Shown: one piece after another, positions 20,727 through 57,421 of the stretch | Position numbering within the stretch: the stretch's first letter is position 1 | How the letters are laid out: the number at the start of each line of letters is the position of its first letter | NCBI GenBank assembly: GCA_965220325.1 | Contig: OZ244821.1 | Span: 1,331,820 to 1,395,819 of the forward strand | DNA length: 64,000 nucleotides | Origin: Candidatus Poribacteria bacterium | GTDB taxonomy: Bacteria; Poribacteria; WGA-4E; WGA-3G | Reading direction: 5' to 3' | Notes under the pieces: generated by a model | What the model was told of the DNA's origin: nothing | Seen by the model: the letters and a program-made list of their open reading frames with translations, nothing else | Databases searched by the model: none | Made by a program: the position numbers and the translations under genes

Positions 20727-20751
20727 TAGCGGTAGAAAGAATGTTTATCTT

Positions 20752-26191: not shown

Positions 26192-29100
26192 ATGATGAAA
26201 TCGCTATTTGGAAATGGAAAAAGCATTGTATCTATTTTAGCGATCCTTATATTCGTTTTAGGTATCGATGTGACGGGTTATGCGTTACCTGTCAGTCAAC
26301 GTACGCCACAGGTGCGGGATGCTATCGTTGCTGCAGTGCCCGGTGTGAATAATGCCAATAATGTGACCACAGCGCATCTTGCGGCAATTACATATTTGGA
26401 TCTATCAGGCCCATACCAGGGGCGTAACATCTCACTGAAAGCCGGAGATCTCGATGGACTCACCGTACTGACATCTCTCACATTGCGCAAGAACGGTTTG
26501 ACTTCATTGCCATCTGGCATATTTGACGACCTAACTACCCTGACAGACCTCGACTTGACCGCTAACGAGTTGACTTCATTGCCATCTGGCATATTTGAAA
26601 ATCTCACCACACTGACACATCTCAACTTGGGTAGTAACGATTTGACCGCATTGCCCTCCAATATATTTGACAACCTTATCAAACTAACACATCTCTACAT
26701 AGATCATAACGATTTGACCTCAATACCAGCAGGGATTTTTGACAATCTTACCACACTGACACATTTCAGTTTGCATGATAACGGCATAACCTCATTGCCA
26801 GCCGATATATTTAAAAATCTCACCAAACTGCTAATATTTAGCTTGCGTAGCAATAAAATCGATGATGTCTCTGAACTTGAAAGTTTGACTTCGCTAACAA
26901 CGTTATATATCGATCATAATCCGATTTCAGATTATGGACCGCTCCGTAGACTCAAAGCAGCGATTGAGGCGATTGAAGATCATCCGGGTTTAACCTTAGA
27001 TATTACAATTCCTCCTGAGGCTACTAACACTGCCCCTGTATTCACAGACGGCACCAGCACAACGCGCACCATCGCAGAGAACACGGCATCGGGTGAACAC
27101 ATCGGCACGGCTATAACTGCTACTGATGCAGACAATGATACCTTAACCTACACCCTCAGTGGCACGGATGCCACAGCGTTCGAGATTGATGCGACAACCG
27201 GACAACTAAAAACCAAGGCAGTACTCGACTACGAAACCAAGGCCATCTATACAGTAACTGTTACTGTCTCTGATGGTAGTTTGACAGATACGATCACTGT
27301 TACAATCAACATCACCAATATAAATGAATTGTCCACAACTACAGCAAGTTGTAAAGTTGGTGATGTCCTTAAGCCCGGTCAAAGCTGCACTTACCCCGGC
27401 ACGGATGCGGTATTTTCTGTGCTTGGTAATGGGACAGCACAATGGCATATCCCGAATTTGCCAGCCTGGCTTGAATGGATTAACCAAACACCTGTTAGCC
27501 GTTCACTGCGTGTCTCTACGACTGTCAACGGGCAGGCGTATCACTTCGTTGCTGAACAGGTCGGCACCTCTTGGGAAATCAAGGAGATTGGTGACGACAA
27601 AAGCGATCCCCAACCTGAGACACCTGAAGTTCCTGAGCCCCCTATAGTAACTGAGAAATCGATAGAGAGCGATTATGATTATATAGAAGGCCCCTGGCTA
27701 TGGATGATTGCACCGGGTGGAGATATAGACACGGATAATCTCTCCGAAGCAAGTGAAGGCGTGATTACGGAACCGCAAATCGCTCAAAATGGTGTTAATG
27801 AGGGGGATCACTTCGACACACTGCAATGGACAAGCGGACGTTTACTGCCTACCACCGTTTGCGGTATTTTCTTATGTTCGTCAGATAATGTCATCAACGT
27901 GGTCAGAGAGATTGGACTCACGAATAGTCGTCAACTCAGTCAATATTCTGCTTATGCTTTGATTAACATTTCCTCGCCACGCGATCAAAACGATGTTTTG
28001 ATGGGTGTTGGGAGTGATGATTCTATCAAAGTTTGGCTCAACGGTTCAGTTGTTTACAAAAATGATGTTACAAGAAGAACAAAAGGCATACAAAACCATT
28101 TTCCTGTAAATCTGAATGCTGGTAACAATCTACTGTTAATTAAAGTTTGCAATCACGGTACGCTGATCTCCAATAACGATTGGGGCATGTTTTTTAAGAT
28201 ATATCTTGACACGCAGGATTACGCTCTATCTATTCCAATGGGAGATGGCAATAATTGGCAACCCGTAACACCTGAAGTACCTGAAACGCCAGAACAGCCA
28301 CAACAGCTCGGAAATACGGGTGGTACACCAACGCTTACCCCATCAACTGCAGCCCCATTGACTGAAGCCACACTCCACAGTAGCATTGTGACACTTACAC
28401 TCAGCGGTGGTACTTATGAGTCCTCCAGTTGGAGAATTAGAGAGGCAGTGACCGTTTCTGGTATTACCGGGGTGACTGTTGACACATTCGATGTGGATCG
28501 CGTGAACGATATTAAGATTACGGTTGAACTGACGTATGCCGGTAACATAAACTCCAACGGCACACTCACCTTCACCGTTGACTCGGATGGGATTAAAGAC
28601 TATGATGGAGCAGCACTTACCGCACAAATACAGGTTACTGCCAACACGGAATCCGTAGCTGCGTCAACTCCATCACCGTTGAAAGAGGCTACATTGGATG
28701 GCAGCGTTGTCACACTTACGCTCAGTGGTGCTAAATACGCAGAGTCTATCTGGGACATAAGAGAGGCGGTTTCAGTATCCGGTATTGATGGCGTAACAAT
28801 CCCTTGGCACCAACCCCGGCGAAAAAGTGATACTCAAATTACGATTGAACTGGAATTTGATGGAGACATGACCACAGATGGTACGCTCACATTCACTGTC
28901 GGGGCAGACGCTATTGCAGGCTATAATGCTGCACTTACCGCACAAGTGACTGTTACTGCTGACAGAGAGAACATCCTTTTGGCAAACTTCCCGAACCCGT
29001 TCAATCCTGAGACGTGGATACCCTATCAACTCGCAAAACCCGCTGACGTTACGCTGACTATCTACGCCGTGAATGGACAGGTAGTTCGGACGTTGGCACT

Positions 29101-29257
29101 CGGACATCAACCCGTGGGTGTGTATCAGACCCGCAGCCGTGCGGCGTATTGGGATGGTAAAAACGCATTCGGCGAACCCGTGGCGAGTGGTGTCTATTTT
29201 TACACACTCACAGCAGGCGACTTCACCGCAACCCGCAAGCTGTTAATACGGAAGTAA
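26192..29257 (+). CDS. Secreted surface protein: LRR, cadherin, jelly roll, 2 novel ~100-aa modules, T9SS-type C-terminal domain
   Basis: Signal peptide. About 7 LRRs of 24 residues (LTxLxLxxNxLTSLPSGIFDNLTT). One cadherin repeat (APVFTDG...DADND...LDYE). A jelly roll (GSDDSIKVWLNGSVVY...NAGNNLLLIKV). Two PLTEATL... modules. Tail: NFPNPFNPETWIPY...SGVYFYTLTAGDFTATRKLLIRK. Confidence 0.8.
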   Translation: MMKSLFGNGKSIVSILAILIFVLGIDVTGYALPVSQRTPQVRDAIVAAVPGVNNANNVTTAHLAAITYLDLSGPYQGRNISLKAGDLDGLTVLTSLTLRKNGLTSLPSGIFDDLTTLTDLDLTANELTSLPSGIFENLTTLTHLNLGSNDLTALPSNIFDNLIKLTHLYIDHNDLTSIPAGIFDNLTTLTHFSLHDNGITSLPADIFKNLTKLLIFSLRSNKIDDVSELESLTSLTTLYIDHNPISDYGPLRRLKAAIEAIEDHPGLTLDITIPPEATNTAPVFTDGTSTTRTIAENTASGEHIGTAITATDADNDTLTYTLSGTDATAFEIDATTGQLKTKAVLDYETKAIYTVTVTVSDGSLTDTITVTINITNINELSTTTASCKVGDVLKPGQSCTYPGTDAVFSVLGNGTAQWHIPNLPAWLEWINQTPVSRSLRVSTTVNGQAYHFVAEQVGTSWEIKEIGDDKSDPQPETPEVPEPPIVTEKSIESDYDYIEGPWLWMIAPGGDIDTDNLSEASEGVITEPQIAQNGVNEGDHFDTLQWTSGRLLPTTVCGIFLCSSDNVINVVREIGLTNSRQLSQYSAYALINISSPRDQNDVLMGVGSDDSIKVWLNGSVVYKNDVTRRTKGIQNHFPVNLNAGNNLLLIKVCNHGTLISNNDWGMFFKIYLDTQDYALSIPMGDGNNWQPVTPEVPETPEQPQQLGNTGGTPTLTPSTAAPLTEATLHSSIVTLTLSGGTYESSSWRIREAVTVSGITGVTVDTFDVDRVNDIKITVELTYAGNINSNGTLTFTVDSDGIKDYDGAALTAQIQVTANTESVAASTPSPLKEATLDGSVVTLTLSGAKYAESIWDIREAVSVSGIDGVTIPWHQPRRKSDTQITIELEFDGDMTTDGTLTFTVGADAIAGYNAALTAQVTVTADRENILLANFPNPFNPETWIPYQLAKPADVTLTIYAVNGQVVRTLALGHQPVGVYQTRSRAAYWDGKNAFGEPVASGVYFYTLTAGDFTATRKLLIRK

Positions 29258-29295
29258 GTTTCTATCAAACCTAAAAAAATAAGGTGCGCGAACCT

Positions 29296-31050: not shown

Positions 31051-31374
31051 TTCTATAACGCGAGTCCCGTATTTGTACGATGGTTTGGACAATTTGTATC
31101 CTATCAACCCAACCTACAGGATCAATGATAGATGATTGCTACAAGAAATTGTCCAAAGTTTAGTATCGTGTATAGAACCGGAGTTATTTTTGATTGTTTA
31201 GGTTCACGATAGCAAGTATAATATTGTGTTCAATGGGCATATTGAGATCAACAAATATCACACTGTTTTTTCTTCCTTTGTCTATAAGGTGGACAATCCA
31301 CTTGTATGACGTGAAGGAACAAATGTATCCCGCAAAGGCAATCGGGCAATAGAAAAGAATGAAAAGGAGACATT

Positions 31375-34300
31375 ATGAAAATGCTAATCCTGAACCGAAA
31401 AATTATGCTGTCAATCGTCACAGCAATGTTATTAATATACGGAATACAAGGCACAAACTACGCGCAGGCGCAAAACAACGCCCATGAATTGACCCCCGTC
31501 GGCGACCGGACGCAGCAGATCCGCGATATGATTGTTGCCCTGGTGCCGGGCGTAGATTCTGCCAACGATGTGACCGCCGCACATCTCGCTTTAATTACCC
31601 GTCTTAATCTGAGTGATCAGAAAATTACGGCACTGAAATCCGGCGATTTTGACGGATTGTCGGCGTTGCGTTCTCTCTCCTTAGCGAAAAACGCGCTCAG
31701 CAGCCTACCTGCCGACATCTTTTCGGGACTCTCTGCTATGGACAGTCTTGACTTAGGGAGTAACGAACTCAGCAGCCTGCCAGCAGAAATCTTTTCGGGA
31801 CTCTCTGCCATGAATAGACTCAACTTGGCATACAACAACCTGGATAACTTATCAGCAAATACATTCTCCGAGATGTCTTCGTTGACTGGGCTGGACTTAG
31901 GTAATAACGAACTCAGCAGTCTGCCAGCTGGTCTATTTTCCGGACTCCCTTCACTGAATTGGCTCAGCTTGTCTTCCAATCAACTCAGCAGTCTACCTGA
32001 CGGTCTATTTTCCGGACTCCCTTCGTTAAATTCGCTTTACCTCAGTGACAACACCATCAACTTATCTATCACTGTGTCCCTGGAGAAGGTTAGCGGAAAC
32101 CAGTTCAAGGCAATCGCACCTACCGGCGCGCCCTTTAATATGGTGCTGCCGATTGCCGTTACGAATGGGAGCATTGCTGACGGGGTAACTACCATTACAA
32201 TTCCGGCTGGCAGCGCCCAAAGCGGACCCCTCACTGTGATTCCTATCCCCGGTACGACTGCCCATGTCACCGCAAATATTGGAACGTTGCCTGAGCTGCC
32301 GACAAGTCATTACGGTTATAGTCTTGTGAAACCGAGCAGCGATGATAACACCCTCAGTTTCGCTCTCGGTTTCCCCAAACCTACAGGCGATTCAAACGTG
32401 AACCATGCCCCGATTTTTACAGAGGGGAGCAGCACGACACGCTCTATAGCGGAGAACACGCCGGCTGGAAAAAACATCGGCAGCCCCGTCACCGCTACAG
32501 ATGAAGATGAAGATGTCCTGACCTATAGTCTCAGTGGGGCAGATGCAGTGTCCTTCAGCATCGTCAGCACCACAGGACAATTACAAACGCATGCACCGCT
32601 TGACTATGAAGAAAAGAACACCTATGCCGTTACTGTCACCGTCTCCGATGGCAGTGCCACTGACACCATCAGTGTCACGATTGATGTCACGGACGTAAAT
32701 GAGAACAATGCACCCGTTTTCGTAGAAGGTAGCAACACAACGCGATCCATAGCAGAAAACACGCCGGCTGGAACAAAAATCGGCAGCCCTGTTACAGCCA
32801 GAGATGCAGATGAAGATACTTTAACTTACACCCTCGGCGGCACAGATGCAGCATCCTTTGGTATCGTCAGCACAACCGGGCAACTGCAAACACGCGACCC
32901 ACTTGACTATGAACAGAAGAACACTTACGCTGTCACCGTCCATGTTTCCGATGGCAATGGCGGCACAGATACCATTGCTGTTGCTATCAACGTCACTGAT
33001 GTAAATGAGAACAACGCACCCGTCTTCGTAGAAGGTAACAGCACAACGCGAGCCGTAGCGGAGAACACGCCGGCTGGAAAAAACATCGGCAGCCCCGTCA
33101 CCGCTACAGACGAAGATGAGGATGTCTTAACCTACAGTCTCAGTGGCAAGGATGCAGCATCCTTTGGTATCGTCAGCACGACCGGGCAACTGCAAACACG
33201 GGATCCGCTCGACTATGAACAAAAGAATACCTACGCTGTGACGGTCACCGTCTCTGATGGCAATGGCGGAACAGATACTATTGCCGTTGCTATCAACGTC
33301 ACGGATGTAAATGAGAACAACGCACCCGTTTTCGTAGAAGGTAGCAGCACAACGCGAGCCGTAGCAGAAAACACGCCTGCCGGAACAAACATCGGCAGCC
33401 CCGTCACGGCTACAGACGAAGATGAAGATACTTTAACTTACGCCCTCGGTGGCACGGATGCAGTGGACTTCGGTATCGTCAGTGCCACTGGACAGTTAAG
33501 AACTCGTGCACCCCTCGACTATGAACAGAAGAACGTCTATTCGGTGGCGGTTATTGTCTCCGATGGCAATGGTGGAACGGATACCATCGGTGTCGCTATC
33601 AACGTCACGGACATAGATGAAACACCCACGGCACATGCGCCGGTTTTCGTAGAGGGGAGTGCTACGGAACGCTCTATTCCTGAGAACACACCCGCTGGAA
33701 AAAACATTGGCGGGCCAGTCATCGCTACGGATGAGGATGAAGAAGATGTCTTGACTTACAGCCTTTCAGGTGTAGACGCACCCTCCTTTGGCATCGTCAG
33801 CAACATTGGACAGTTGCAGACGCGCGCACCGCTTGATTATGAACAGAAGAATGCCTATTCGGTAGTAGTTACCGTCTCCGATGGCACACTCACGGATACC
33901 ATCAGTGTTGCTATCAATGTCACGGATGTCGCGGAGAACCGCGCACCTGTGTTCGTTGAAGGGAGTAGCACGACACGCACTATCGCAGAGAACACACCCG
34001 CTGGGGAAAACATCGGCAGTCCTGTTGCAGCTAGAGATGCAGATGAAGATACTTTAACTTATACCCTCGGCGGCACGGATGCAGCGTCCTTTGGCATCGT
34101 CAGCACAACCGGGCAGCTGCAAACACGGGACCCGCTCGACTATGAAGAAGAGAACACCTATGCGGTGACCGTCATCGCCTCTGATGGCAACGGTGGGATA
34201 GACACCATTGCCGTTGCTATCAACGTCACTGATGTAAATGAGAACAGGGCACCTGTGTTTGTGGCCGGTCTCACGAAGCGTTCAGTGTCAGAAAACACAC

Positions 34301-36228
34301 CGGCTGGTGTAAACATCGGTAACCCTGTGGTTGCTAGAGATAAGGATAACGACAAATTGACATACATCCTCGGTGGTATAGATGCAGTGTCCTTCAGCAT
34401 CGTCAGCACCACCGGACAATTGCAAACGCGGGCACCACTGGATTATGAACAGAAGAACGCCTATTCGGTAGTAGTTACCGCCTCCGATGGAATGCTCACG
34501 GATACCATCAATGTGGCTATCAATGTTACCGATGTCAACGAGAACAACGCACCCGTTTTCGCCAGCAGTAGCACAACGCGAACTATCGCGGAAAACACAC
34601 CGGCTGGCAGAAACATCGGCAGCCCTATCACCGCTACGGATGCGGATGGTGATCCTCTGACATATACACTCGGCGGTCCAGATGCAGCAACCTTCAGCAT
34701 CATCAGCACCACCGGACAGTTGCAAACGCGGGCACCGCTGGATTATGAAACGAAGAAGGCTTATGCGGTAACGGTCACCGTCTCTGATGGTAAGGGTGGC
34801 ACAGACATCATCAGCGTGACTATCAATGTCACTGACTTAAACGAAGCGCCGCCGACTGTAGAGGAAGCGCCAGTGACGGTAAACGAAACGCCAGTGACGG
34901 TAAACGAAACGCCGCCGACTGTGGATGTCCCCCCACAACCCGCGCAGATACAGAGCGCCGTCAGCATTAGTGAAATTATGTATGCTGCAGAATCCCGATT
35001 CACACCGCAGCAATGGATAGAATTACACAATGCCAGTTCAGATATAATCAGTCTCAACGGATGGACAGTGACCATCCAAAACAAAAATACATCAGATTTG
35101 ACCGACCCAGAGAATGTGAATGTGACATTCACTTTTGAGGATGATTTCTGGGGGGATGCCCCCACGCTTTGGCCAAATGAGACTGTCCTGATTGTTTCAT
35201 CAGACGTGAGTGATCACGAACACAATACCGACCTTCGTGAAAACCAATTTTACGATCTACGGTGGCGGACAGATTTACCCTTTAGTTTGTGGGACACAAT
35301 GCTGAGTGTAGAAGCATTCTCTATAAAACTGATGGATGGTGATGGAAATTTGGTAGACGAGGCTGGAAACTTTGATGGAAATATTCAACTATGGAAATTT
35401 AATCTGGGGCATAGAGGTAAGACCAAAGATGAATTCCGTAGTTCCGTGATACGCCGTTATCGCGATGGAATCGCACTGGATGGCACCCTAAAAGATAGCT
35501 GGATTCCTGCTGTGTTCGCGAATTTAACAGAAGATCAACTCACCTATGTTGGGGCGGAGACTGACATCAGCACCCCTGGTATCGGGATCGTCATCAACGA
35601 CATCTCTCAACGGAACACAGCATACGATGTTAACAAGGATGGAGTCGTTGATGTCTCCGATCTGGTAATTGTTGCCGGACGGGTCGGTCAATCCGGGCCC
35701 AATATCGCAGACGTTAACGGTGATGGCGTTGTCAATATCCAAGATTTGATACTCGTGGCGGGGGCAATCAGTGAAGCACAAGCGGCACCCTCACTGTATC
35801 CCGCATCACTCGCAATGTTTACCGCTGCCGATATTCGCGGGTGGCTGACCGAAGCACACGGATTAGATTTCAGGGATCCGAAACTCCAAAGCGGCATCCA
35901 CTTCTTAGAACAACTCCTGTTAGTCTTAGTCCCGAAAGAGACAGAACTGCTGCCGAACTATCCAAATCCGTTCAACCCGGAAACGTGGATACCGTATCGG
36001 TTGGCGGAAGATGCTTTCGTCGCGGTGACGATCTACGATCAACGCGGGCGTGTCGTCCGTAGACTCAACGTCGGATACCGGATCGTCGCAGCTTACGAGA
36101 GCCGGTCAAAAGCGATCTATTGGGACGGCAGAAACGAGGTCGGCGACAAGGTCGCCAGTGGAATTTATTTCTACACCCTCACCGCAGGCGACTATTCCGC
36201 CACACGAAAGATGCTAATCGTCAAGTAA
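31375..36228 (+). CDS. Giant surface protein (1617 aa): LRR, 8 cadherin repeats, lamin-tail domain, dockerin-like pair, T9SS-type C-terminal domain
   Basis: Signal peptide. LRRs (LxxLxLxxNxLSSLPAxxFSGL). Eight ~100-aa units (APVFVEG..T.R...ENTPAG.NIG.PV.A.D.DED.LTY.L.G.DA..F.I...TGQLQTR.PLDYE). LTD (SISEIMYA...QQWIELHNAS). Dockerin-like pair: DVNKDGVVDVSDLVIV...DVNGDGVVNIQDLILV. Tail: NYPNPFNPETWIPY...GIYFYTLTAGDYSATRKMLIVK. Confidence 0.85.
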   Translation: MKMLILNRKIMLSIVTAMLLIYGIQGTNYAQAQNNAHELTPVGDRTQQIRDMIVALVPGVDSANDVTAAHLALITRLNLSDQKITALKSGDFDGLSALRSLSLAKNALSSLPADIFSGLSAMDSLDLGSNELSSLPAEIFSGLSAMNRLNLAYNNLDNLSANTFSEMSSLTGLDLGNNELSSLPAGLFSGLPSLNWLSLSSNQLSSLPDGLFSGLPSLNSLYLSDNTINLSITVSLEKVSGNQFKAIAPTGAPFNMVLPIAVTNGSIADGVTTITIPAGSAQSGPLTVIPIPGTTAHVTANIGTLPELPTSHYGYSLVKPSSDDNTLSFALGFPKPTGDSNVNHAPIFTEGSSTTRSIAENTPAGKNIGSPVTATDEDEDVLTYSLSGADAVSFSIVSTTGQLQTHAPLDYEEKNTYAVTVTVSDGSATDTISVTIDVTDVNENNAPVFVEGSNTTRSIAENTPAGTKIGSPVTARDADEDTLTYTLGGTDAASFGIVSTTGQLQTRDPLDYEQKNTYAVTVHVSDGNGGTDTIAVAINVTDVNENNAPVFVEGNSTTRAVAENTPAGKNIGSPVTATDEDEDVLTYSLSGKDAASFGIVSTTGQLQTRDPLDYEQKNTYAVTVTVSDGNGGTDTIAVAINVTDVNENNAPVFVEGSSTTRAVAENTPAGTNIGSPVTATDEDEDTLTYALGGTDAVDFGIVSATGQLRTRAPLDYEQKNVYSVAVIVSDGNGGTDTIGVAINVTDIDETPTAHAPVFVEGSATERSIPENTPAGKNIGGPVIATDEDEEDVLTYSLSGVDAPSFGIVSNIGQLQTRAPLDYEQKNAYSVVVTVSDGTLTDTISVAINVTDVAENRAPVFVEGSSTTRTIAENTPAGENIGSPVAARDADEDTLTYTLGGTDAASFGIVSTTGQLQTRDPLDYEEENTYAVTVIASDGNGGIDTIAVAINVTDVNENRAPVFVAGLTKRSVSENTPAGVNIGNPVVARDKDNDKLTYILGGIDAVSFSIVSTTGQLQTRAPLDYEQKNAYSVVVTASDGMLTDTINVAINVTDVNENNAPVFASSSTTRTIAENTPAGRNIGSPITATDADGDPLTYTLGGPDAATFSIISTTGQLQTRAPLDYETKKAYAVTVTVSDGKGGTDIISVTINVTDLNEAPPTVEEAPVTVNETPVTVNETPPTVDVPPQPAQIQSAVSISEIMYAAESRFTPQQWIELHNASSDIISLNGWTVTIQNKNTSDLTDPENVNVTFTFEDDFWGDAPTLWPNETVLIVSSDVSDHEHNTDLRENQFYDLRWRTDLPFSLWDTMLSVEAFSIKLMDGDGNLVDEAGNFDGNIQLWKFNLGHRGKTKDEFRSSVIRRYRDGIALDGTLKDSWIPAVFANLTEDQLTYVGAETDISTPGIGIVINDISQRNTAYDVNKDGVVDVSDLVIVAGRVGQSGPNIADVNGDGVVNIQDLILVAGAISEAQAAPSLYPASLAMFTAADIRGWLTEAHGLDFRDPKLQSGIHFLEQLLLVLVPKETELLPNYPNPFNPETWIPYRLAEDAFVAVTIYDQRGRVVRRLNVGYRIVAAYESRSKAIYWDGRNEVGDKVASGIYFYTLTAGDYSATRKMLIVK
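32401..34846 (+). repeat. Tandem array of 8 cadherin-repeat coding units (~300 bp each)
   Basis: Units delimited by the recurring ...DVNEN(N/R)APVF(V)EG... junctions. Long near-identical nucleotide runs occur between units. Confidence 0.85.
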
Positions 36229-36426: not shown

Positions 36427-39400
36427 GTGGCCGTGCAAATTATAAAACTGACAATTTCCTTTTTGATATGTATGCTACTTGGATTGACCCCTCGCGCCAT
36501 GAGTCGAGATGCAGTACCGGGACAACGGTCAGGGACACTTGAAGATCCGTCAACAGTAAACCCAACGCCCCGAGACAAAACACTGAAGCGGATGAGCGTT
36601 TTATACGGAACCAATGAAAACGCGAATACAAGCATTCCGCCACCTCTGATGCAGCAGCTATACCCAAACGGTGACTTTCTCGCGACAGAACACTCCCAAT
36701 TTATCGTAACTTACGACGGTTTTACAGATGAAGCCATGGCAGCATTCCAATATGCAGTCGATATTTGGAACTCGTTCATCCGATCGCCTGTGCCAATCCG
36801 GATTGACGCATCTTTCACGGACTTGGGCGGTTTTGACGGTACCGCTATTATTTTAGGCGGCGCGCGCCCGGCAGACTGGCAATCACCCAGATCCTTGGGT
36901 TTGTGGTTCCCAGAAGCACTCGCGGATAAGAGAGCCGATAGAGACATCGCAGCGGGTGAACCCGATATCATCACAAGATTCAACAGTCACGAAGACGCAA
37001 ATTGGTACTTTGGCACGGATGGAAATACACCAGCAGGAAAACAGGACTTCGTTAGTACTGTACTTCATGAGATCGCTCACGGCCTTGGGTTTACCAGTTT
37101 TGCTACCGTCCGGACATTTTCCGCGTCTGTTGGTCAAGGGAAACTTAGGGATGGCGATCCCAGGTTACCCCAGATTTACGATTTTTTTGTAGAAAACGGC
37201 TCTGGAAAAACTATTATGTCTCTAACGGACCCGTCTGTTGACCTTGAAAACCAACTCACGAGCAATGACCTCTTCTGGAATGGAAAAAGAGGCGTTGCAG
37301 CAAACAGTGGTATTCTCCCACATCTCTACACCCCCAGTTCATGGGCAGAAGGTTCAAGCTACGTCCACTTGAATGAAATGACTTTTCCGGTCGGCGATGC
37401 GAACTCCCTAATGACCCCATACCTTGACAACCAGGAAGCGATTCACGACCCTGGCCCCATCGCACTCGGCATGCTTGAAGATATGGGATGGATAATCAAT
37501 AAAGCCCCCGTGTTCACCGACGGTTCGAGTACCGACCGTACAGTGGTGAACGGAAGTGTTGGAAGACCAGTGGCGGCGACAGATGCTAACAACGATCCGC
37601 TCACCTATTATCTAAACCGAAATCCAGAGGCAGCAGCTTTTGATATTGATAACATCACCGGACAACTGAAAACCAAGGTAGCGCATACCTACAACAAGGC
37701 ATCTTATACCGTAACTGTCGCTGTTTCCGATGGCACCTTGATGGATGAAATCACTGTCACCATCCATATCACCAGCACAGCAACTGAAACGCCTCCGAAT
37801 AGCAGACCGAACTTCGTGGATGGCAATCACACCCGTCGCACCATAGCAGAGAATACAGCGAAAGGCGTAGATATCGGCAAACCCGTCGCAGCGACGGATG
37901 CAGACAACGATGCTCTCACCTACACCCTCAGCGGTCCCGACGCGGCAGCTTTTGACATTGATAGCACCACCGGACAACTGAAAACCAGTGCCGAGCTGGA
38001 TTATGAAACCAAGAACACCTACACCGTAACGGTTACCGTCTCCGATAGCGATCTCGCGATTACCATCACCGTCATTATCATTATCATCAATCTGGACGAT
38101 CAGAAAAGTCCAACGCTAATGTTAACTTCACAACCGCTAACGGAAGCAACGCTAAACGGAAGCGTTGTGACACTGACTTTGAACAACCGAATCTATGAAA
38201 ACTGGCTCAGTGATCCCGTAACAGTGTCTGGTATTCCCGGTGTAACCGTTAGACCGTTTGATGTCCTTCGTCTGAGCGATACAGGGTTGTCAGTCCAACT
38301 GACATTTTACGGAACATCCCTCAATACGGATACCACCCTTACCCTCACAGTAAAAGCGGATGCCATTGAGAACTATGAGGGTCCTGCACTGATCGCAACA
38401 GCACGCGTCACGGCGAATGCGGAATCGGTGGCCGCATCAACGATAACACCCTTAACAGAAGCCACACTTAATGGAAGTGTTGTCACATTAACGTTAAACG
38501 GTGGTATTTATGAATCTCAGTATACTGTCGGCAACAGTGTGACGGTATCCGGTATTTCCGGTGTCACTGTTAACGTCTATAATGTGGAACGCCTCAGTGG
38601 GACGCAGGTGAATGTTGAACTCATATTTGACGGGACCGACTTTGATACGGATGCCACGCTGACCTTCACAGTCGGAACGAATGCCATAGTAGAATACAAG
38701 GGTACGGCACTCACCGCACAATTACGCGTTAGTGCCGTAATAGAGGAGATCCCAATAGTAACGGCTTATGCGACACACCCCTTGACAGAGGCAACCCTTG
38801 ATGAGCGTATCGTCACACTCACCCTATCAAGCGGCGTGTATACACACTCCAGTGCTGACATTAGCAGCGCAGTGCAAGTATCGGGTGTTGCAGGTGTTAC
38901 GTTTCGCCGGTCCGATGTCGTACGCGTCAGTGATACAAAAGTAACCGTTCAACTGACATTCAAAGGTCCGGACTTTGATACGGATGCCATGCTGACCTTC
39001 ACAGTCGGATCGGATGCTATCGTGAACTACCATGGTTCCGCACGCATCACGAGGCTACCTATCATCGCTGTGGTCGAAGAAAGACCTACAATAACGGCTT
39101 ATGCGACACACCCCTTGACGGAGGCAACCCTCAATGGCAGCGTTATCCGGTTAACACTTAATAATGGAACTTACGTACGATCTAACTTCGATATTGAAGA
39201 TGCTGTGACAGTATCCGGTATTGCAGGCGTTACCGTTGGATTCTTCGGGGTGGAACGCGTGAGCAACACAATAATTACCTTTGAACTGGAATTCAATGGT
39301 AACCTTGACACTAATACCACACTCACTTTCATAGTGGGCGCGGATGCTATTGCCGAATACGAGGGTCCCGCACGCATCGCGCAGCTACCTGTTACCGGTG

Positions 39401-40332
39401 GACAGGAATCGATCGTCGCATCAACTGAGGCTCCCTTGACAGAAACAACACTAAATGGTAGTATCGTTACATTCACGCTCAACGGTGCCATTTACGAGCA
39501 ATCTACCTTTGATCTCAGGGACGCTGTTGAGGTATCTGGCATTGAGGGGGTCACTTTTCATTGGTTTGATTTGGACCGCGTCAGTGATACGGAACTAACG
39601 GTTGCATTGACATTCAGAGGCAACATTGACACGGATACCATCCTCACTTTTACAGTGGGCGCGGATGCTATTGCCGAATACGAAGGGCCCGCACGCATCG
39701 CACAAATAATTGTCGCTGGTAGCAAAGAGTCGGTTGCTATTTCAACAGAAGCACCGTTGGTGGAAGCGACGCTGGACGGTAGCCTCGTCACATTGACACT
39801 CAGCGGACGCATTTATGAACGATCCTATTTCAGACTCAGAGAAGCTGTCTTAGTCTCCGGTATTGACGGCGTGACCGTAGACGATATAGATCGTATCAGC
39901 GACGCAAAGATTACCCTTGAACTGGCATTCAATGGGGATTTTGATACCGACACCACACTCACCTTTACTGTCGGTGCAGATGCATTATTGAGATATAGCG
40001 GACCCGCCCTCACAGCGCAACTCCCTGTCATCGCAGATAGAGAGAACGCACTTTTGACAAACTTCCCGAATCCGTTCAACCCGGAAACGTGGATACCCTA
40101 TCAACTCGCAAAACCCGCAGATGTTAGCATCTCCATCCATGCTATAGACGGCAAGTTGGTACGCGCTTTGGATTTAGGACATCAACCCGCAGGGAGGTAT
40201 CACAACCGTAGCCGTGCAGCGTATTGGGACAGTAAAAACGCATTCGGCGAACCTGTCGCAAGCGGCGTATATTTCTATACCATCACAGCAGGCGACTTCA
40301 CCGCTACACGCAAAATGTTAATACGCAAATAG
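36427..40332 (+). CDS. Surface protein (1301 aa): metzincin-like Zn-protease head, 2 cadherin repeats, 6 novel ~100-aa modules, T9SS-type C-terminal domain
   Basis: GTG start. Signal-like N-terminus. Zinc motif VLHEIAHGLGF (37066..37080 encodes HEIAH) with a downstream SLMTPY Met-turn-like motif. Cadherin units (APVFTDG..., PNFVDG...). Six PLTEATLNGS... modules. Tail: NFPNPFNPETWIPY...YFYTITAGDFTATRKMLIRK. Confidence 0.8.
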   Translation: MAVQIIKLTISFLICMLLGLTPRAMSRDAVPGQRSGTLEDPSTVNPTPRDKTLKRMSVLYGTNENANTSIPPPLMQQLYPNGDFLATEHSQFIVTYDGFTDEAMAAFQYAVDIWNSFIRSPVPIRIDASFTDLGGFDGTAIILGGARPADWQSPRSLGLWFPEALADKRADRDIAAGEPDIITRFNSHEDANWYFGTDGNTPAGKQDFVSTVLHEIAHGLGFTSFATVRTFSASVGQGKLRDGDPRLPQIYDFFVENGSGKTIMSLTDPSVDLENQLTSNDLFWNGKRGVAANSGILPHLYTPSSWAEGSSYVHLNEMTFPVGDANSLMTPYLDNQEAIHDPGPIALGMLEDMGWIINKAPVFTDGSSTDRTVVNGSVGRPVAATDANNDPLTYYLNRNPEAAAFDIDNITGQLKTKVAHTYNKASYTVTVAVSDGTLMDEITVTIHITSTATETPPNSRPNFVDGNHTRRTIAENTAKGVDIGKPVAATDADNDALTYTLSGPDAAAFDIDSTTGQLKTSAELDYETKNTYTVTVTVSDSDLAITITVIIIIINLDDQKSPTLMLTSQPLTEATLNGSVVTLTLNNRIYENWLSDPVTVSGIPGVTVRPFDVLRLSDTGLSVQLTFYGTSLNTDTTLTLTVKADAIENYEGPALIATARVTANAESVAASTITPLTEATLNGSVVTLTLNGGIYESQYTVGNSVTVSGISGVTVNVYNVERLSGTQVNVELIFDGTDFDTDATLTFTVGTNAIVEYKGTALTAQLRVSAVIEEIPIVTAYATHPLTEATLDERIVTLTLSSGVYTHSSADISSAVQVSGVAGVTFRRSDVVRVSDTKVTVQLTFKGPDFDTDAMLTFTVGSDAIVNYHGSARITRLPIIAVVEERPTITAYATHPLTEATLNGSVIRLTLNNGTYVRSNFDIEDAVTVSGIAGVTVGFFGVERVSNTIITFELEFNGNLDTNTTLTFIVGADAIAEYEGPARIAQLPVTGGQESIVASTEAPLTETTLNGSIVTFTLNGAIYEQSTFDLRDAVEVSGIEGVTFHWFDLDRVSDTELTVALTFRGNIDTDTILTFTVGADAIAEYEGPARIAQIIVAGSKESVAISTEAPLVEATLDGSLVTLTLSGRIYERSYFRLREAVLVSGIDGVTVDDIDRISDAKITLELAFNGDFDTDTTLTFTVGADALLRYSGPALTAQLPVIADRENALLTNFPNPFNPETWIPYQLAKPADVSISIHAIDGKLVRALDLGHQPAGRYHNRSRAAYWDSKNAFGEPVASGVYFYTITAGDFTATRKMLIRK
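38127..40035 (+). repeat. Array of 6 copies of the unrecognised ~100-aa module (coding)
   Basis: Each unit reads ...PLTEATL(N/D)GS(V/I)VTLTL(N/S)G..Y.......(A)V.VSGI.GVT......R(V/L)S.T...V.L.F.G...TD..LTFTVG.DAI..Y.G.A....L.V.A. Confidence 0.85.
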
Positions 40333-40388
40333 TAGTCAGTAGAAAAACCGTACTGAAAACTGACATCCATTATAATAAGGAATTCATT

Positions 40389-42722
40389 ATGAAAACCCTA
40401 ATCATGAAGCAGAAATACCTTGTGTCCATATTAGTTACCATCTTCACAATCTTGGGAATACAAAGCAGTTACGCACAGACGATAACCGCTTCAACGCCAC
40501 ACCCCTTGACAGAGGCAAACCTACACGAAAGTGTAGTCACCCTCACGCTCAGCGGGCGTAGTTTTACTGGGTGGTCATCAGACATCGGAGAGGCAATGAC
40601 GATATCCGGCATTGACGGTGTCACTTTTGATAATTATTGGGATGTGGATCGTATAAGCGACACAAAAGTGACCGTAGAACTCACATTCTCTGGCAATATT
40701 GATGCAGACACACCGCTTGTCTTTACCGTAGGAGCAGGGGGAATAGCTAACTATGATGGTGAGGCACTCACCGCACAACTCCCTGTGACTGCTGTTGAAG
40801 AGTCGTTAGTCCCAACAACAGAAGCACCTTTGACAGAGACAACGCTTAGCGGCAGCCTTGTGACACTCACACTCAGTGGCCGTAGTTTCGCGAGTTGGGA
40901 ATCTTCCATTCAATCGGCTCTGACAATATCCGGTGCTGAGGGTGTCACTTTTGATTCGTGGGACGTGAATCGTATAAGCGACACAAAAGTGACCGTAGAA
41001 CTCACATTCTCTGGCAATATTGATGCAGACACGCCGCTTATCTTTACGGTAGGAGCAGGGGGAATAGCTGACTATGATGGTGATGCACTCACCGCACAAA
41101 TACCTGTCACAGCTGTAGCGGAGACACTTGTCGCAACAACAGAAACGCCTCTGACAGAGACAACGCTTAGCGGAAGTGTCGTAACCCTTACACTCAGCGG
41201 GCGGCATTTTACAGATGAATGGGACATTGAGCGTGCGTTGACTATATCCGGTATTGAAGGCGTGACCATACACGATGTTGATCGCAACAGTAATATGGAG
41301 GCAACTGTTGATATAAGGTTCTCCGGCAACATAGACATAGATGCGACACTCATTATCACCGTGGGGGCGGGCGCAATAGTGAACTACAATGAGGCGTTCA
41401 CTGTTCAAGTTCCTGTCACAGCTGTAGAGGAGACGTTAATCGCAACTACGACGGCACCTCTAACAGAGGCAACGCTGAGTAGTAGTGTTGTGACACTCAC
41501 ACTCAACGGGCGTGTTTTCAACACCTCTGGCACTGTGTCTGTATCTGGCATTGATGGTGTAACCATAAGTAGGATCAGCCGCGTCAGTAACACACAGATG
41601 ACGGTGTCACTTACTTTCTCCGGGAATATTGACGCGGATAGCACGCTTACAATCACCGTAAGTGCAGCCCGTATAGCCGGCTACAATGATGCATTCACTG
41701 TCCAACTCCCTGTCACAGCTGTTGAAGAGTCGTTAGTCGCAACAATAGAGGCACCCTTGACAGAGACAACACTTAGCGGCAGCGTTGTGAAACTCACGCT
41801 CAGTGGACGGTCTTTTGTTGCTCACTCTTCCAACATTGCACGTGCTTCGTCAATATCTGGCATTGAAGGCGTAACAGGTAGCTTCAGACGCGTAAGTAAT
41901 ACAGAGGCTAAAATTACATTGGGTTTCTCCGAGAACATAGACGCAGATAGTACACTCACAATCACCGTAGGTGCGGATGCGATAGTAGGCTACAACGAGG
42001 CGTTCACTGTCCAGTTACCTGTTACGGCAGTAGTGGAGACGCTTGTCGCAACAACAGAAGCACCTTTGACAGAGACAACACTTAGCGGAAGTGTAGTAAC
42101 GCTTACGCTCAGCGGGCGGTCTTTCAATGATAGATACGATGTCTATAATGCTCTGACGGTCTCCGGCATTGAAGGCGCATCATTTTACAAGTTTGGTGTA
42201 GATCGCATAAGTAATACGAAGGTAACCGTGCCACTGACATTCTTTGGTAACATAGACGCAGATAGTACACTCACTCTCACCGTGGGAGCAAATGCTATCG
42301 TAGGCTACAACGAGGCGTTCACTCTTCAACTCCCTGTCACAGCAGTAGCGGAGTCATTAGTCGCAACTACGGAAGCACCTTTGACAGAGACAACACTTAG
42401 CGGCAGCGTTGTAACACTCACACTCAACGGGCGGTCTTTCGATTCGTCACGTCATGACATTGAGCGTGCGCTAACTATTTCCGGTATTGAAGGTGTCACG
42501 GTTTATAGGGCAAACCGCGTGAGCGATACCAAAGTGACAGTTGTGTTGATTTCTACCGAAGATTTTGATACAGATAGTGTGCTGACTCTCACCGTCGGTG
42601 CGGATGCTATTGTAGGCTACAATCAAGAATTTTCCTTTGAATTCCCTGTGACTGGTGTAGAAGAGTCGCTTATTGCAACAACAGAAACCCCTTTGACAGA
42701 AGCGAACCTTACGGGTGTGTAA
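40389..42722 (+). CDS. 5' part of an IS-disrupted surface-protein gene (signal peptide plus 7.2 copies of the ~100-aa module)
   Basis: The reading frame runs into the left IS end and stops at a TAA inside the inverted repeat (42720..42722). As it stands, the product lacks the cohesin/dockerin region and the T9SS-type tail. Confidence 0.8.
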   Translation: MKTLIMKQKYLVSILVTIFTILGIQSSYAQTITASTPHPLTEANLHESVVTLTLSGRSFTGWSSDIGEAMTISGIDGVTFDNYWDVDRISDTKVTVELTFSGNIDADTPLVFTVGAGGIANYDGEALTAQLPVTAVEESLVPTTEAPLTETTLSGSLVTLTLSGRSFASWESSIQSALTISGAEGVTFDSWDVNRISDTKVTVELTFSGNIDADTPLIFTVGAGGIADYDGDALTAQIPVTAVAETLVATTETPLTETTLSGSVVTLTLSGRHFTDEWDIERALTISGIEGVTIHDVDRNSNMEATVDIRFSGNIDIDATLIITVGAGAIVNYNEAFTVQVPVTAVEETLIATTTAPLTEATLSSSVVTLTLNGRVFNTSGTVSVSGIDGVTISRISRVSNTQMTVSLTFSGNIDADSTLTITVSAARIAGYNDAFTVQLPVTAVEESLVATIEAPLTETTLSGSVVKLTLSGRSFVAHSSNIARASSISGIEGVTGSFRRVSNTEAKITLGFSENIDADSTLTITVGADAIVGYNEAFTVQLPVTAVVETLVATTEAPLTETTLSGSVVTLTLSGRSFNDRYDVYNALTVSGIEGASFYKFGVDRISNTKVTVPLTFFGNIDADSTLTLTVGANAIVGYNEAFTLQLPVTAVAESLVATTEAPLTETTLSGSVVTLTLNGRSFDSSRHDIERALTISGIEGVTVYRANRVSDTKVTVVLISTEDFDTDSVLTLTVGADAIVGYNQEFSFEFPVTGVEESLIATTETPLTEANLTGV

Positions 42723-44152
42723 AGTTTTTGGCAGCGTATTTTTGAAGATATGAGTTGAAGTTTGTCAATAAAAATGGTATCCTCTCGCAAAGATGATAAA
42801 GTTGAGTATCGTAAGGAGAAGATACCATGTCTAACATTGTAGCAGAAATTCAGCAAGAAATGGAAGATATTTTTCAAGAGTTAAGTGATACCGAGGACGT
42901 TTCGGTTTCGACCGTAGAGGCGCGTGTGTCTAAGGCTGCCGATTCTTGGGCACAAAGGTTATCCGAGTCGGTTCTATCAGAGACAGCGAGTTGTAAGGAG
43001 ACATCGCCTGTGAGTGTTGCGTGTCCATCTTGTCAAGGGCATAGTCATAGGTATCGGTGCCGGGCGCGCAACTTCACGACGGTTTGTGGTGTTCTGCGTA
43101 TCTCAAGATGGGCGTATAAATGTCAATGTGGTTATATTCATGTGCCTTGGGAGGCTAAGCAAGGGTTGAAAGGACGGTATACACAGGCGGTTGCCAAAGC
43201 GATGATGCGTGTCGCTGCACAGTTGAACTATCGTGCGGCGGCGGCGGAGTTGAAGCATCAAGGCATTGAAGTGAGTCATACGACGCTGCATCAGAAGGTT
43301 CAGGAGTGGTCAGCAGGCGAAGTTATCTCTGATTATGTGGCATCGGAATGCTTGGAGTCTGATGCGCGTTGGTATGTCAGTTTTGATGGGTGCCACACGA
43401 ACTCACCTGTCGGTTGGCAGGAGGTGAAAGTCGGGTGCATCGGTAAAGATTATCCGCACCAGAACGCGACCTCGGTGATGAAAATCCGTCCACCGAGTCT
43501 CCGTTATATCGCTTCTCGGAGTTGTGCGTCGGATTTCGGAGAGCAGTTGTCTGCGTTAGCGACACAGACCGGTATTTATCAAGACGAAAAAACGATAGAC
43601 ACCGAAGAAGTCGTTGTTATCGGTGATGGGGCAGTGTGGATATGGAACTTGGCAGATGAACACTTCCCGGGTGCCACCGAAATCGTTGACTTTATGCATG
43701 CCAAGAAACATTTACATGATGTTGCCAAACTTGCTTTCGGCGAAGATGACTCAGACCGTGTAGAGACTTGGGTGCGGACAACCGAGACCCCCCTTTACAA
43801 TGGAGAGACATCGCAAGTCGTCGCACGCATACGAGAGTTGGCAACAGAAAACCCAGCGATAGGAGATGTCCTCGAAAAAGAAGTCCGCTATTTTCAAAAA
43901 AATGCTCATCGCATGCAATATCGGACGTTCAACGAAAAAGGCTATCAGATCGGCAGTGGTGTCATTGAGAGTGCTTGTAAACACGTCGTCGCTGAACGCT
44001 GTAAACAAGCAGGCATGCGATGGAGCACACCCGGGATAAATGCCATACTCTTTTGGCGATGTTTGCTAAAGAATGACGCAGCAGATACTTATTGGGATAC
44101 ACAAACTATGCCAAACGCAGCATAAATACGCTGCCAAAAACTTTACACACCC
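42713..44152 (+). mobile_element. Insertion sequence, 1440 bp, single DDE-type transposase (ISKra4/ISLre2-like)
   Basis: Perfect 29-bp terminal inverted repeats: GGGTGTGTAAAGTTTTTGGCAGCGTATTT at 42713..42741, and its reverse complement at 44124..44152. Flanked by a 9-bp direct repeat GAACCTTAC (42704..42712 and 44153..44161). Confidence 0.9.
42827..44125 (+). CDS. IS transposase (432 aa; ISKra4/ISLre2-like, family assignment tentative)
   Basis: N-terminal Cys-rich segment (CPSCQGHSHRYRC...CQCG). Motifs VIGDGAVWIWN, DFMHAKKHL and YQIGSGVIESACKHVV..RCKQAGMRWS. SD AAGGAG. The stop lies inside the right inverted repeat. Confidence 0.8.
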   Translation: MSNIVAEIQQEMEDIFQELSDTEDVSVSTVEARVSKAADSWAQRLSESVLSETASCKETSPVSVACPSCQGHSHRYRCRARNFTTVCGVLRISRWAYKCQCGYIHVPWEAKQGLKGRYTQAVAKAMMRVAAQLNYRAAAAELKHQGIEVSHTTLHQKVQEWSAGEVISDYVASECLESDARWYVSFDGCHTNSPVGWQEVKVGCIGKDYPHQNATSVMKIRPPSLRYIASRSCASDFGEQLSALATQTGIYQDEKTIDTEEVVVIGDGAVWIWNLADEHFPGATEIVDFMHAKKHLHDVAKLAFGEDDSDRVETWVRTTETPLYNGETSQVVARIRELATENPAIGDVLEKEVRYFQKNAHRMQYRTFNEKGYQIGSGVIESACKHVVAERCKQAGMRWSTPGINAILFWRCLLKNDAADTYWDTQTMPNAA

Positions 44153-46115
44153 GAACCTTACTGGCAGCGTGGTGACACTCACGCTCAGCGGGCGGCATTT
44201 TACAGACGAATGGGACATTGAGCGTGCTTTGACGTTCTCTGGTATTGAGGGTGTTTCTATTCCAAGCTACGACGGTGTAGAACGTGTAAGTAACACGGAA
44301 GCAAAGGTTACCTTGTCATACTCTGGCAATATAGACACAGATAGCACGTTTACTTTGGAAGTAGGCGCGGGTGCTATAACCAGCTACAATGAAGGATTTA
44401 CCTTTGAATTTCCCGTCACTGCTGTTGAAGAGAGGTTGGAAATCTCAACAGAATCTCCTTTGACAGAAGCAGCACTGAATGGTGGCACTATCACACTCAA
44501 GCTCATCGGACGTCAATTCACATGGTGGCGACAGGATATTGAAGAGGCAGTGACATTAACTGGCATTGAAGGTCTGAGCATCGGCAGATTCAGTGTTGAT
44601 CGTGAAACTGGAGATGTGGTGCTAATTCCGCTTGTCTTTAATGGCAATATAGACACAGATGCTACACTTACCATTGAGGTCGGAGCAGGTGCAATCGCAG
44701 GCTATAACGAAGCATTCACCACACAAATACCTGTTACGTCGGTAGAGGAGTCACTGGATATATCATCTAAGTTTAACTTGAATGAGGCAACGCTTAACGG
44801 AACTGAAGTTATATTAAAACTGAATGGTCGTTCTTATGTGTCGTCATTCTCTGACATCCGCAATGAAGTGTCAGTTACTGGTATTGAAGGTGTCACTTTC
44901 GATGATTTCTTTGATGTGGACCGTGTCAATGACAATGAGGTGGTGGTTGAACTGAGTTTTGACGGAACAGATTTTGATATTGACAGCACGCTCACCTTTA
45001 CTGTCGGTGCAGAGGCAATTTCTGGTTACGGCGAAGCATTGACTGCCCAACTTCCGGTTACTGCGATAAAGCAATCCAACGGGACAATCAGCATCTCGCC
45101 GAACCCGGTCGTATCTCCACCACTTTTTGAACAGTTGACTGTCAGTCTAAATATTACAAGCGGGGAGAATGTTGCTGGGTTTCAAGCTATCGTTTGGTAT
45201 GATGATGACACACTCAGATATGTGGAAAGTGCTAAAGGCAATTATCTGCCAGCGGATGCGTTCTTTGTGGCCCCAACTGTTCCAGAGTATGAATATTATC
45301 CGTATCCTTATGTGCCAATTGCTACAACCGCTCTTGACGGCGTAAGTAATGGTAACGGCACACTCGCCACCGTCACCTTTGAAGTTTATGATGATATTAA
45401 AGAATCTGAGATAACCTTGACGAATGTCTACATTGTAGACCGTGAGGGTATTCGGTGGGAAGTTGAGATTGAAGGCACTGATGTGACTGAACCGGCGCAC
45501 GATGTCGTTGGAGATATTAACCGTGATGGTCTGGTGAACATCCGCGATTTAGTGCTTGTGAGTTGGCGTTTTGGTTTACGTGACGAAAATCGCGCGGATA
45601 TTAACGGAGACGGCATTGTTGATATAGCTGACCTTGTGCTCGTTGCAAATGCGTTGGGTGCGGATGCAGCTGCGCCATCCTTAAATCCACAGATATTGGA
45701 ACAGCTCACCGCCGCAGATGTGAAAGAATGGCTAACCCAAGCGCAGAAAATCACACTGACCGACCCCGATTATAAGCGCGGAATTAGTGTGCTGGAGCAA
45801 CTCCATAAGGCGCTGACCCCTAAAACGACAGCACTCTTGCCAAACTTCCCTAATCCGTTCAACCCGGAAACGTGGATACCCTACCACTTATCAAAAGATG
45901 CGGATGTCACACTGCACATCTATGCTGTGAACGGCATATTGGTGCGAACGCTGGTACTTGGGCATCAAGCTGCAGGTCGGTATCAAAGTCGTTCCCGTGC
46001 GGCATATTGGGATGGCAGAAACGAACGCGGTGAACCCGTCGCAAGCGGTGTTTACTTCTACACACTCACGGCAGGCGATTTCACTGCTACACGTAAGATG
46101 TTGATACGCAAGTAG
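44153..46115 (+). pseudogene. 3' part of the IS-disrupted gene: 2.8 modules, cohesin-like domain, dockerin-like pair, T9SS-type C-terminal domain
   Basis: Removing 42713..44161 rejoins ...PLTEANLT|GSVVTLTLSGRHF... in frame, giving a ~1425-aa protein with 10 modules. The 27 N-terminal codons of the 44073 track ORF are IS sequence. Confidence 0.8.
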
Positions 46116-57262: not shown

Positions 57263-57421
57263 TCAAACCCTGAAGAAACGCCCAAGCAAAAACCCTGCAG
57301 TGGGCTGCGTAAGTCCTGTTATTGCGTTTTTTGGATAGAATTATGCACCCGTTCCATCCATAAGTAGCGTCACCAGAAATGAAAGCACAATTATGCAACC
57401 ATCTATTTGTGGAGACGACCA

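Follow-up and report, generated by a model that had tools for sequence, protein, structure and literature searches.

A predicted Ig-like module repeated in tandem in poribacterial genes for presumed surface proteins, one of them broken by an ISKra4-family insertion sequence

Tandem bacterial immunoglobulin-like (Ig-like) domains of the Big type make up surface adhesins such as the Lig proteins of Leptospira and the Big_1/Big_2 arrays of intimin and invasin. Cargo proteins of the type IX secretion system (T9SS), such as the gingipains and the Flavobacterium adhesins SprB and RemA, carry an Ig-like domain before their C-terminal domain, and cellulosomal scaffoldin-type proteins combine cohesin, dockerin and Ig-like X modules. 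ChiW of Paenibacillus sp. FPU-7 (PDB 5GZT/5GZU/5GZV) has been described as a multi-modular cell-surface enzyme with two Ig-like fold domains; these bind and may stabilise the catalytic domains, and have a supporting rather than catalytic role (PMC5132251). The locus described here lies in a stretch of 64,000 nucleotides (nt), referred to as the window, from Candidatus Poribacteria bacterium (GenBank assembly GCA_965220325.1, contig OZ244821.1, positions 1,331,820 to 1,395,819 of the forward strand), in which a module of about 105 residues recurs in three genes. This module probably represents an unnamed Ig-like family that has expanded in Poribacteria and builds the bodies of surface proteins, its copies being old paralogues without hypermutation.

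An earlier reading of the window had counted 18 copies in three genes, and the same number was obtained when a hidden Markov model (HMM) of the unit was run against the six-frame translation. All 18 modules were full-length and on the + strand, scored 127-156 bits each and lay within about 20 nt of the earlier coordinates, and no further module was found above noise elsewhere in the 64-kb window. Cutting the units by anchoring on the PLTE(A/T)TL motif yielded 2, 6 and 7 + 3 units of 99-111 residues. The scaffold motifs quoted at that time were also recovered, with residues L7, L16, G36, G39, R49, V75 and Y83 invariant in 18/18 copies. The carriers, here called gene A, gene B and the split gene (the last being interrupted by an insertion sequence, IS), are laid out as follows:

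26192..29257, + strand: gene A, open reading frame (ORF) of 1021 amino acids (aa)
28355..28981, + strand: gene A modules, A1 at 28355-28675 (147 bits) and A2 at 28676-28981 (148 bits)
28988-29248, + strand: gene A sorting domain, which module A2 abuts
36427..40332, + strand: gene B, ORF of 1301 aa
38134..40056, + strand: gene B modules B1-B6, head to tail, starting at 38134, 38449, 38779, 39112, 39433 and 39754 (127-152 bits)
40063-40323, + strand: gene B sorting domain, C-terminal
40389..42712, + strand: split gene, 5' part, with signal peptide, modules 1-7 (40503-42689) and the opening 8 codons of module 8
42713..44152, + strand: ISKra4-family IS of 1440 bp, with transposase ORF at 42827-44125
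44153..46115, + strand: split gene, 3' part, modules: remainder of module 8 to 44456, module 9 at 44457-44771, module 10 at 44772-45071
44153..46115, + strand: split gene, 3' part, other domains: cohesin-like at about 45135-45443, dockerin at about 45510-45656, sorting domain at about 45846-46106

Gene A encodes, in order, a signal peptide, an LRR region, a cadherin domain, an unnamed domain of about 200 aa, two modules and a C-terminal sorting domain (Pfam matches LRR_8, Cadherin and FlgD_ig). Gene B encodes a signal peptide, an NF038122-type metalloprotease-like region, two cadherin domains, six modules and a C-terminal sorting domain. TIGR04183 scored above its cut-off (23) in all three genes (36.1 bits in gene A, 28.4 in gene B and 28.1 in the 3' part of the split gene), and by this C-terminal domain the window genes classify as T9SS type A cargo.

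The module had been described as unrecognised, and it remained so in sequence searches of Pfam-A, NCBIfam and the PDB. No Pfam-A or NCBIfam model, among them Big_5, BT_3987-like_N, Cadherin, PKD and CopC, matched it at the curated cut-off, whether whole proteins or each of the 18 units was scanned, and HMMER profiles of 18 and of 74 sequences found no PDB chain with E<0.2. The flanking domains were recognised by Pfam-A and NCBIfam (LRR, cadherin, NF038122-type metalloprotease, cohesin, dockerin and FlgD_ig/TIGR04183), and the NCBI names of close relatives reflect other domains only ("T9SS type A sorting domain-containing", "cohesin domain-containing", "cadherin domain-containing"). Published work has described poribacterial eukaryote-like domain proteins and Por-type C-terminal domains by their Pfam content, with the module unmentioned (PMC3909097), and no description of it was found in the literature searched on Poribacteria (dockerin/cohesin, T9SS and eukaryote-like repeats).

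The proposed Ig-like beta-sandwich was also predicted by AlphaFold2. A model built from the 18-unit alignment had a predicted local distance difference test score (pLDDT) of 84, and one built from a 74-sequence alignment that included distant modules reached a pLDDT of 94.2 with a predicted template modelling score (pTM) of 0.80. Seven to eight strands were modelled at about residues 2-3, 11-15, 32-35, 40-41, 47-49, 54-61, 69-75 and 88-95; a short helix spans residues 25-31, and residues 44-46 and 77-79 form helical turns. Foldseek found no match in the PDB at E<=1e-3. Many of the neighbours listed contain Ig-like domains (probability up to 1.0, template modelling score (TM) <=0.62, E >=7e-3); the top one is the Paenibacillus chitinase ChiW (TM with respect to the query, TMq, 0.61-0.62, 18-21% identity, E = 7e-3), followed by DsbD-N, L,D-transpeptidase and beta chains of class II of the major histocompatibility complex (MHC II). 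Ig-like domains are known in ChiW, in the MHC II beta chains and in titin Z1Z2, which is also among the neighbours. A viral structure library searched with Foldseek gave generic Ig-like matches only (E >=1.3e-3). Given the AlphaFold2 sandwich and the weak Foldseek neighbours, the module is predicted to have an Ig-like fold without a close solved relative.

Some of these matches would fit a different view, namely that the module is a very divergent member of an existing family (Big_5 PF13205, BT_3987-like_N PF08522 or cadherin-like). PF08522 gave sub-threshold matches in 3/18 units, the best with E = 0.08 and a score of 14.1 bits (cut-off 25.9), and faint precomputed matches in many relatives; the distant relative P0320 has a summed Big_5 match of E = 2.6e-8 with no individually significant stretch, and the S-layer protein SbsC is among the Foldseek neighbours of the first model (TMq 0.53). 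However, none of the 18 units reached any Pfam gathering score, the 74-sequence profile drew no PDB chain at the threshold given above, and the top structural match amounted to just TM 0.62 at E = 7e-3, so that membership of a known family is considered quite unlikely. The verdict is that the module, of about 105 residues and Ig-like, forms a new domain family and belongs to a familiar type of building block.

An exhaustive profile search retrieved 723 representative clusters (50% identity) at E<=1e-3 and 269 at E<=1e-30, which puts the size of the family at no fewer than 723 clusters at that identity. Every relative bearing a name, as well as all five reference-genome loci, belongs to Candidatus Poribacteria. 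Modules occur in 2 to 17 or more copies per protein, head to tail, and among 237 full-length relatives 992/1073 module junctions were <=5 residues long and 157/237 proteins had a C-terminal sorting motif. The arrays are joined to LRR, cadherin, metalloprotease-like, WD40, cohesin and dockerin domains, mostly in two layouts. In the first, to which the split gene belongs and towards which the sample of 237 is skewed by the query used, the array directly follows the signal peptide and is itself followed by cohesin, dockerin and sorting domain; in the second, that of genes A and B, the functional domains come first, at the N-terminus, and the array lies directly before the sorting domain. In addition, giant proteins of 3000-6600 aa (P0308, P0311, P0338, P0351, P0354, P0373 and P0376) were observed to hold 7-18 distant module copies of 16-45 bits each, which alternate with cadherin-like, FN3-like and other domains of about 100 aa, or follow a subtilase. 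The superfamily may extend beyond Poribacteria; a search with a 321-aa piece, made to place these proteins taxonomically, gave no match.

The two ORFs of the split gene are one gene broken by an ISKra4-family IS, as is evident from an intact orthologue, P0122 (1325 aa), at locus L006 of another Poribacteria assembly, which lies in the same gene neighbourhood. When the 1440-bp IS and one of the two direct-repeat copies are taken out, the frame is open again over 1425 aa, with 10 modules in total (40503-42712 plus 44153-45071). The transposase (ORF of 432 aa) matches NF033572 of NCBIfam at 233.1 bits (cut-off 205), the element ends in 33-nt inverted repeats that are 97% complementary, and a perfect 9-bp target duplication, GAACCTTAC, is found at 42704-42712 and 44153-44161. 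The 5' ORF (40389-42722) enters the IS in frame and stops at 42720-42722, and the 3' ORF was listed as 44073-46115; this listed start, 44073, falls within the IS and is probably spurious. The 5' fragment keeps the signal peptide and loses the cohesin, dockerin and sorting domains, and the 3' fragment is left without a signal peptide. The cohesin match itself is sub-threshold (22.4 bits, cut-off 24.1). The element is apparently intact, and the perfect target duplication and the intact sister-strain orthologue suggest that its insertion into the 10-module gene is recent.

Two short stretches of the unit, segments 1 and 2, had been singled out in the original prediction as differing in almost every copy. 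In the alignment of the 18 copies, columns 21-31 and 43-50 show the peaks of entropy and indels, and the two stretches are indeed where entropy is highest and indels lie. Across 104 non-redundant modules taken from other genomes, variation was highest in columns 20-30 and 43-48, gaps and insertions fell at columns 22-27 and 44-46, and 19 columns had an entropy >=2.8 bits (20, 22, 23, 25-27, 29, 30, 38, 43-46, 48, 58, 60, 85, 96 and 97). Eight of these 19 lie within one 11-column window (scan-statistic p = 0.0017) and, by a post hoc count, 13 lie inside the two segments. The localisation of the variation holds for the peaks of entropy and indels but is not exclusive, as columns 38, 58 and 60 (the last two being strand positions that face outward) and the inter-module linker also vary.

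Mean Kyte-Doolittle hydropathy was -1.5 for the variable columns vs +1.0 for the conserved ones; the variable columns are hydrophilic and therefore not buried core positions. No strong family match, no variable core and no uniform variation along the unit was found, any of which would have spoken against the module as first described. The hydrophobic positions 21, 28, 31 and 32 of segment 1 stay conserved, in the pattern of an amphipathic helix that would pack on the sandwich with a variable outer face. On the model, the segments are the exposed B-C connection, made of a loop with a short amphipathic helix, and the loop that follows it and leads to strand D. Strand order, topology and sequence place both probably at the N-terminal pole of the domain, and a weak covariation between them (columns 26-45 and 29-42) agrees with a location at the same pole. 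The most conserved polar features, E4 (92-95%) and the D/N64-x-D66-x-D68 loop (70-80%), lie outside the variable segments and are common to the distant modules too; speculatively, they may bind a metal where modules meet, as repeats of other adhesins do.

Between paralogous modules in the window, amino-acid differences amount to 69% in segment 1 and 75% in segment 2 vs 40% in the scaffold, with synonymous sites saturated (dS about 2). Orthologues were compared over 12 module pairs between the window and L006, and omega (dN/dS) across five genomes was based on the last four modules:

Segment 1, 12 orthologous pairs: amino-acid difference 12.7%, omega 0.24
Segment 2, 12 orthologous pairs: amino-acid difference 16.9%, omega 0.19
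Scaffold, 12 orthologous pairs: amino-acid difference 13.7%, omega 0.18
Linker, 12 orthologous pairs: amino-acid difference 18.6%, omega 0.30
Variable columns, five genomes: omega 0.40 for both segments, 0.52 for segment 1, 0.26 for segment 2
Other partitions, five genomes: omega 0.21 for other exposed columns, 0.09 for the hydrophobic core, 0.11 for the linker

Because the five-genome omega values are well below 1, the segments, although the fastest-evolving part, are under net purifying selection. In the closest paralogue pairs, omega was 0.46 and 0.74 in the segments vs 0.20 in the scaffold, which fits a relaxed or adaptive divergence soon after duplication that was followed by constraint. 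The segment sequences define module types common to 3-7 genomes, for example RQFTWWR...LSIGR, RSY.SSF.DI...FDDFFDVDR, RHFTDEWDI, NTSGTVSVSG...ISRI.RVSNTQMTV and VRYSSDIARVSAISG...GSFRRVSNTEA; since these types were obtained by single-linkage clustering, in which one large cluster was over-merged by chaining, their counts are illustrative only. The term 'hypervariable' therefore overstated the case: between sister-strain orthologues the segments differ no more than the scaffold, omega stays below 1 and the types recur across genomes.

Localised variation of this kind, together with the one short conversion tract described below and nothing else, could point to a programmed hypervariation that acts within a strain through a diversity-generating retroelement or cassette switching. 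This explanation is largely refuted and must be regarded as extremely improbable. No reverse transcriptase was found among the 24 ORFs of the window that were scanned, which included nearly all ORFs >=180 aa, and no template repeat or other diversification machinery was found in the 64-kb window. Differences between the segments consist of indels and of substitutions of every kind, not of adenine-targeted changes, the sister strain's last three modules are 96-97% identical and have near-identical segments, and omega lies at 0.2-0.5. A diversity-generating retroelement or other targeted mutagenesis was accordingly rejected, given the lack of a reverse transcriptase among the window ORFs scanned, the indel-rich variation and the conservation between strains.

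The orthologue of the split gene holds 9, 9, 9, 10, 15 and 17 modules in six other genomes vs 10 here, and that of gene B holds 8 modules in L006 vs 6 here. Three to four C-terminal module types are positionally stable, and internal types are duplicated, lost or repeated as multi-module blocks, L002 being an example of the last. Within a protein, neighbouring modules resemble each other more than non-neighbouring ones do, which fits local tandem duplication. A coupling of neighbours through an inter-module interface was rejected: in a mutual-information analysis of module i vs i+1, only same-column signals rose above the control of non-adjacent modules from the same protein, and these signals reflect the neighbour similarity left by tandem duplication and not an interface.

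Exchange between modules was detected as well. In a GENECONV-like test, 7/585 module pairs had runs that were reached by 0/2000 permutations. The identical RHFTDEWDIERAL segment noted earlier in modules 3 and 8 of the split gene is present, and the gene conversion suggested at that time was traced to the following tract:

41193..41240, + strand: gene-conversion tract in module 3, 48 nt, encoding LSGRHFTDEWDIERAL; donor type module 8 (44184-44231)

In the tract, identity reaches 96% with module 8 and 98% with the L006 orthologue of that module; in the flanks it is 56-67%. The flanks of module 3 instead match the module-3 type found in L002 and L003 at 78-84% identity, and the corresponding tract of that type reaches just 67-69%. 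None of 2000 permutations reached the observed run between modules 3 and 8. Gene conversion between the two modules is thus borne out by a tract that is 96-98% identical and by flanks that match the module-3 type elsewhere. As the module 8 type carries RHFTDEWDI in 5/7 genomes (RNFTDEWDI in L003), module 8 is the likely donor. The arrays change, in summary, by tandem duplication, loss and short-tract gene conversion. It was also observed that the last module of the gene B orthologue in L006 (9356-9670; ...IPWHDPDRKNDTQITIELEFDGD...) is closer to module A2 of gene A (28676-28981) than to B6, which suggests that blocks of module plus sorting domain have been exchanged between paralogous genes.

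If the modules are indeed old paralogues of a structural Ig-like repeat, head-to-tail arrays would most likely form the elongated body of proteins presumed to be at the cell surface, where they would space and present LRR, cadherin, metalloprotease-like, WD40, cohesin and dockerin domains and may contribute a low-specificity adhesion. The carrier proteins have a predicted Sec signal peptide, and most of those sampled end in a T9SS-type-A-like C-terminal sorting domain. Exposed stretches would drift or adapt faster after duplication, and each module type would then be held by purifying selection, with no active hypermutation, so that the same types recur across strains. The arrays would evolve by tandem duplication, deletion and short-tract conversion, in the manner known for tandem Ig-like arrays in other bacterial adhesins, one array gene having been broken here by an IS.

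Several points weigh against this account. The array of the split gene, like that of many relatives, forms the distal, N-terminal end of the protein and has no further domain outside it; there, a pure spacer would lack anything to present, a point in favour of a role for the modules as such. The conservation across strains of exposed segments specific to a module exceeds the needs of a featureless spacer, and the raised segment omega in the closest paralogues could be an adaptive divergence after duplication. The burial and relative position of the segments are deduced from sequence and topology only. Finally, the Por secretion system's structural genes went undetected in poribacterial single-cell genomes (Kamke et al. 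2014, PMC3909097), so that the route of export and anchoring is uncertain.

Constraint on module-specific exposed segments is equally compatible with old paralogues of a structural repeat and with the diversified binding scaffold suggested in the earlier reading, in which each module type is a recognition unit whose segments 1 and 2 form a ligand site (for sponge matrix or cell-surface ligands, or for partner proteins), shuffled module types giving adhesins with combinatorial specificity. Such a scaffold is a possible, if doubtful, explanation. It would account for variation concentrated in two exposed, hydrophilic segments that are kept for each module type across genomes under purifying selection, for the segment omega of 0.46 and 0.74 vs 0.20 among recent paralogues, for the weak covariation of segment 1 and 2 columns (26-45, 29-42) and for the many proteins in which hardly anything but modules lies on the far side of the cohesin, dockerin and sorting domains. 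On the other hand, no ligand, no conserved pocket resembling a binding site and no homology to a known binding domain was found, omega never exceeded 1, and faster loops around a conserved core are also seen in purely structural tandem Ig-like repeats. The E4 residue and the D/N-x-D-x-D loop, the most conserved polar features, moreover lie outside the variable segments. In an extended and unlikely version, the module types would be a conserved repertoire of recognition units, each for a different ligand of the sponge host or of a partner (through helix-loop plus loop at the N-terminal pole), calcium bound at the junctions through E4 and D/N-x-D-x-D would stiffen the array, and module turnover would re-program host specificity; this would be, if true, a combinatorial adhesin system specific to the symbiont, with a new Ig-like domain as its scaffold.

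Of the uncultured symbionts that live in marine sponges, Poribacteria are some of the most abundant, and their "eukaryote-like" surface proteins are the main candidates for host contact. Analyses based on Pfam (e.g. PMC3909097) miss the module even though it makes up most of the length in hundreds of these proteins. A definition of the family would improve annotation and explain long "unannotated" stretches, would supply a confidently modelled unit of about 105 residues that is tractable in structural and binding work, and would provide a marker of array dynamics between symbiont strains. It reveals no new diversification mechanism.

The neighbourhood as a whole (26192-36228 and 57407-62855) is made up of clustered large genes for 'eukaryote-like' surface proteins, as is typical of Poribacteria. 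These include a gene at 31375-36228 for LRR, eight tandem cadherin repeats, lamin-tail, dockerin and sorting domain, and genes for two WD40 proteins (57407-60448 and 60570-62855); a protein with LDL-receptor class B repeats is encoded further off (12919-14013). A second domain without a Pfam match, of about 200 aa, is shared at 77% identity by gene A (about 27660-28290) and the gene at 29284-31050 (about 29695-30300). It carries the motif EGPWLWMI...GVGSDDSIKVW.NG..VYKN...DWGMFFKIYL, and its composition suggests a jelly-roll or lectin-like domain. In the gene at 29284-31050, it is linked to a lamin-tail domain by (PQQPEE)n, encoded by a perfect 18-bp tandem repeat at 30295-30402 (six copies, 98% match). 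Three further ORFs have no Pfam family at the thresholds used: 14085-17537 (- strand, 1150 aa), 52196-54148 (+ strand, 650 aa) and 20698-21846 (+ strand, 382 aa).

Among described systems, ChiW superposes on the module with a TMq of 0.61-0.62 and a root-mean-square deviation of 3.4-3.5 A over about 107 columns, the matched part of ChiW being unspecified. The two differ in that identity is 18-21% with a Foldseek E of 7e-3 and no HMMER relationship, and ChiW has two dissimilar Ig-like domains and no arrays. Scaffoldins are matched by the split gene and many relatives in that a module array is paired with a cohesin-like and a dockerin domain; however, no glycoside hydrolases are attached here, the cohesin of the window is sub-threshold, and the proteins belong to a sponge symbiont rather than a cellulolytic anaerobe. 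T9SS cargo differs from the poribacterial proteins in its module family and, as Por/T9SS structural genes such as PorK/L/M/N, Sov and PorU/V have been reported absent from poribacterial genomes (PMC3909097), possibly in the sorting pathway. The order of parts is nevertheless shared, with signal peptide, functional domains, one or more Ig-like modules and a TIGR04183-type domain, and in genes A and B the last module abuts the sorting domain. Tandem Big arrays show no detectable sequence similarity to the module, all Big_* models remaining below threshold, and the poribacterial module has a short B-C helix, has named relatives in Poribacteria only and is joined to cohesin, dockerin and a T9SS-type sorting domain. 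Nevertheless, both consist of beta-sandwiches of about 90-110 residues that are set head to tail in exported surface proteins, and both are made of moderately diverged copies with a conserved core, faster loops and a variable copy number.

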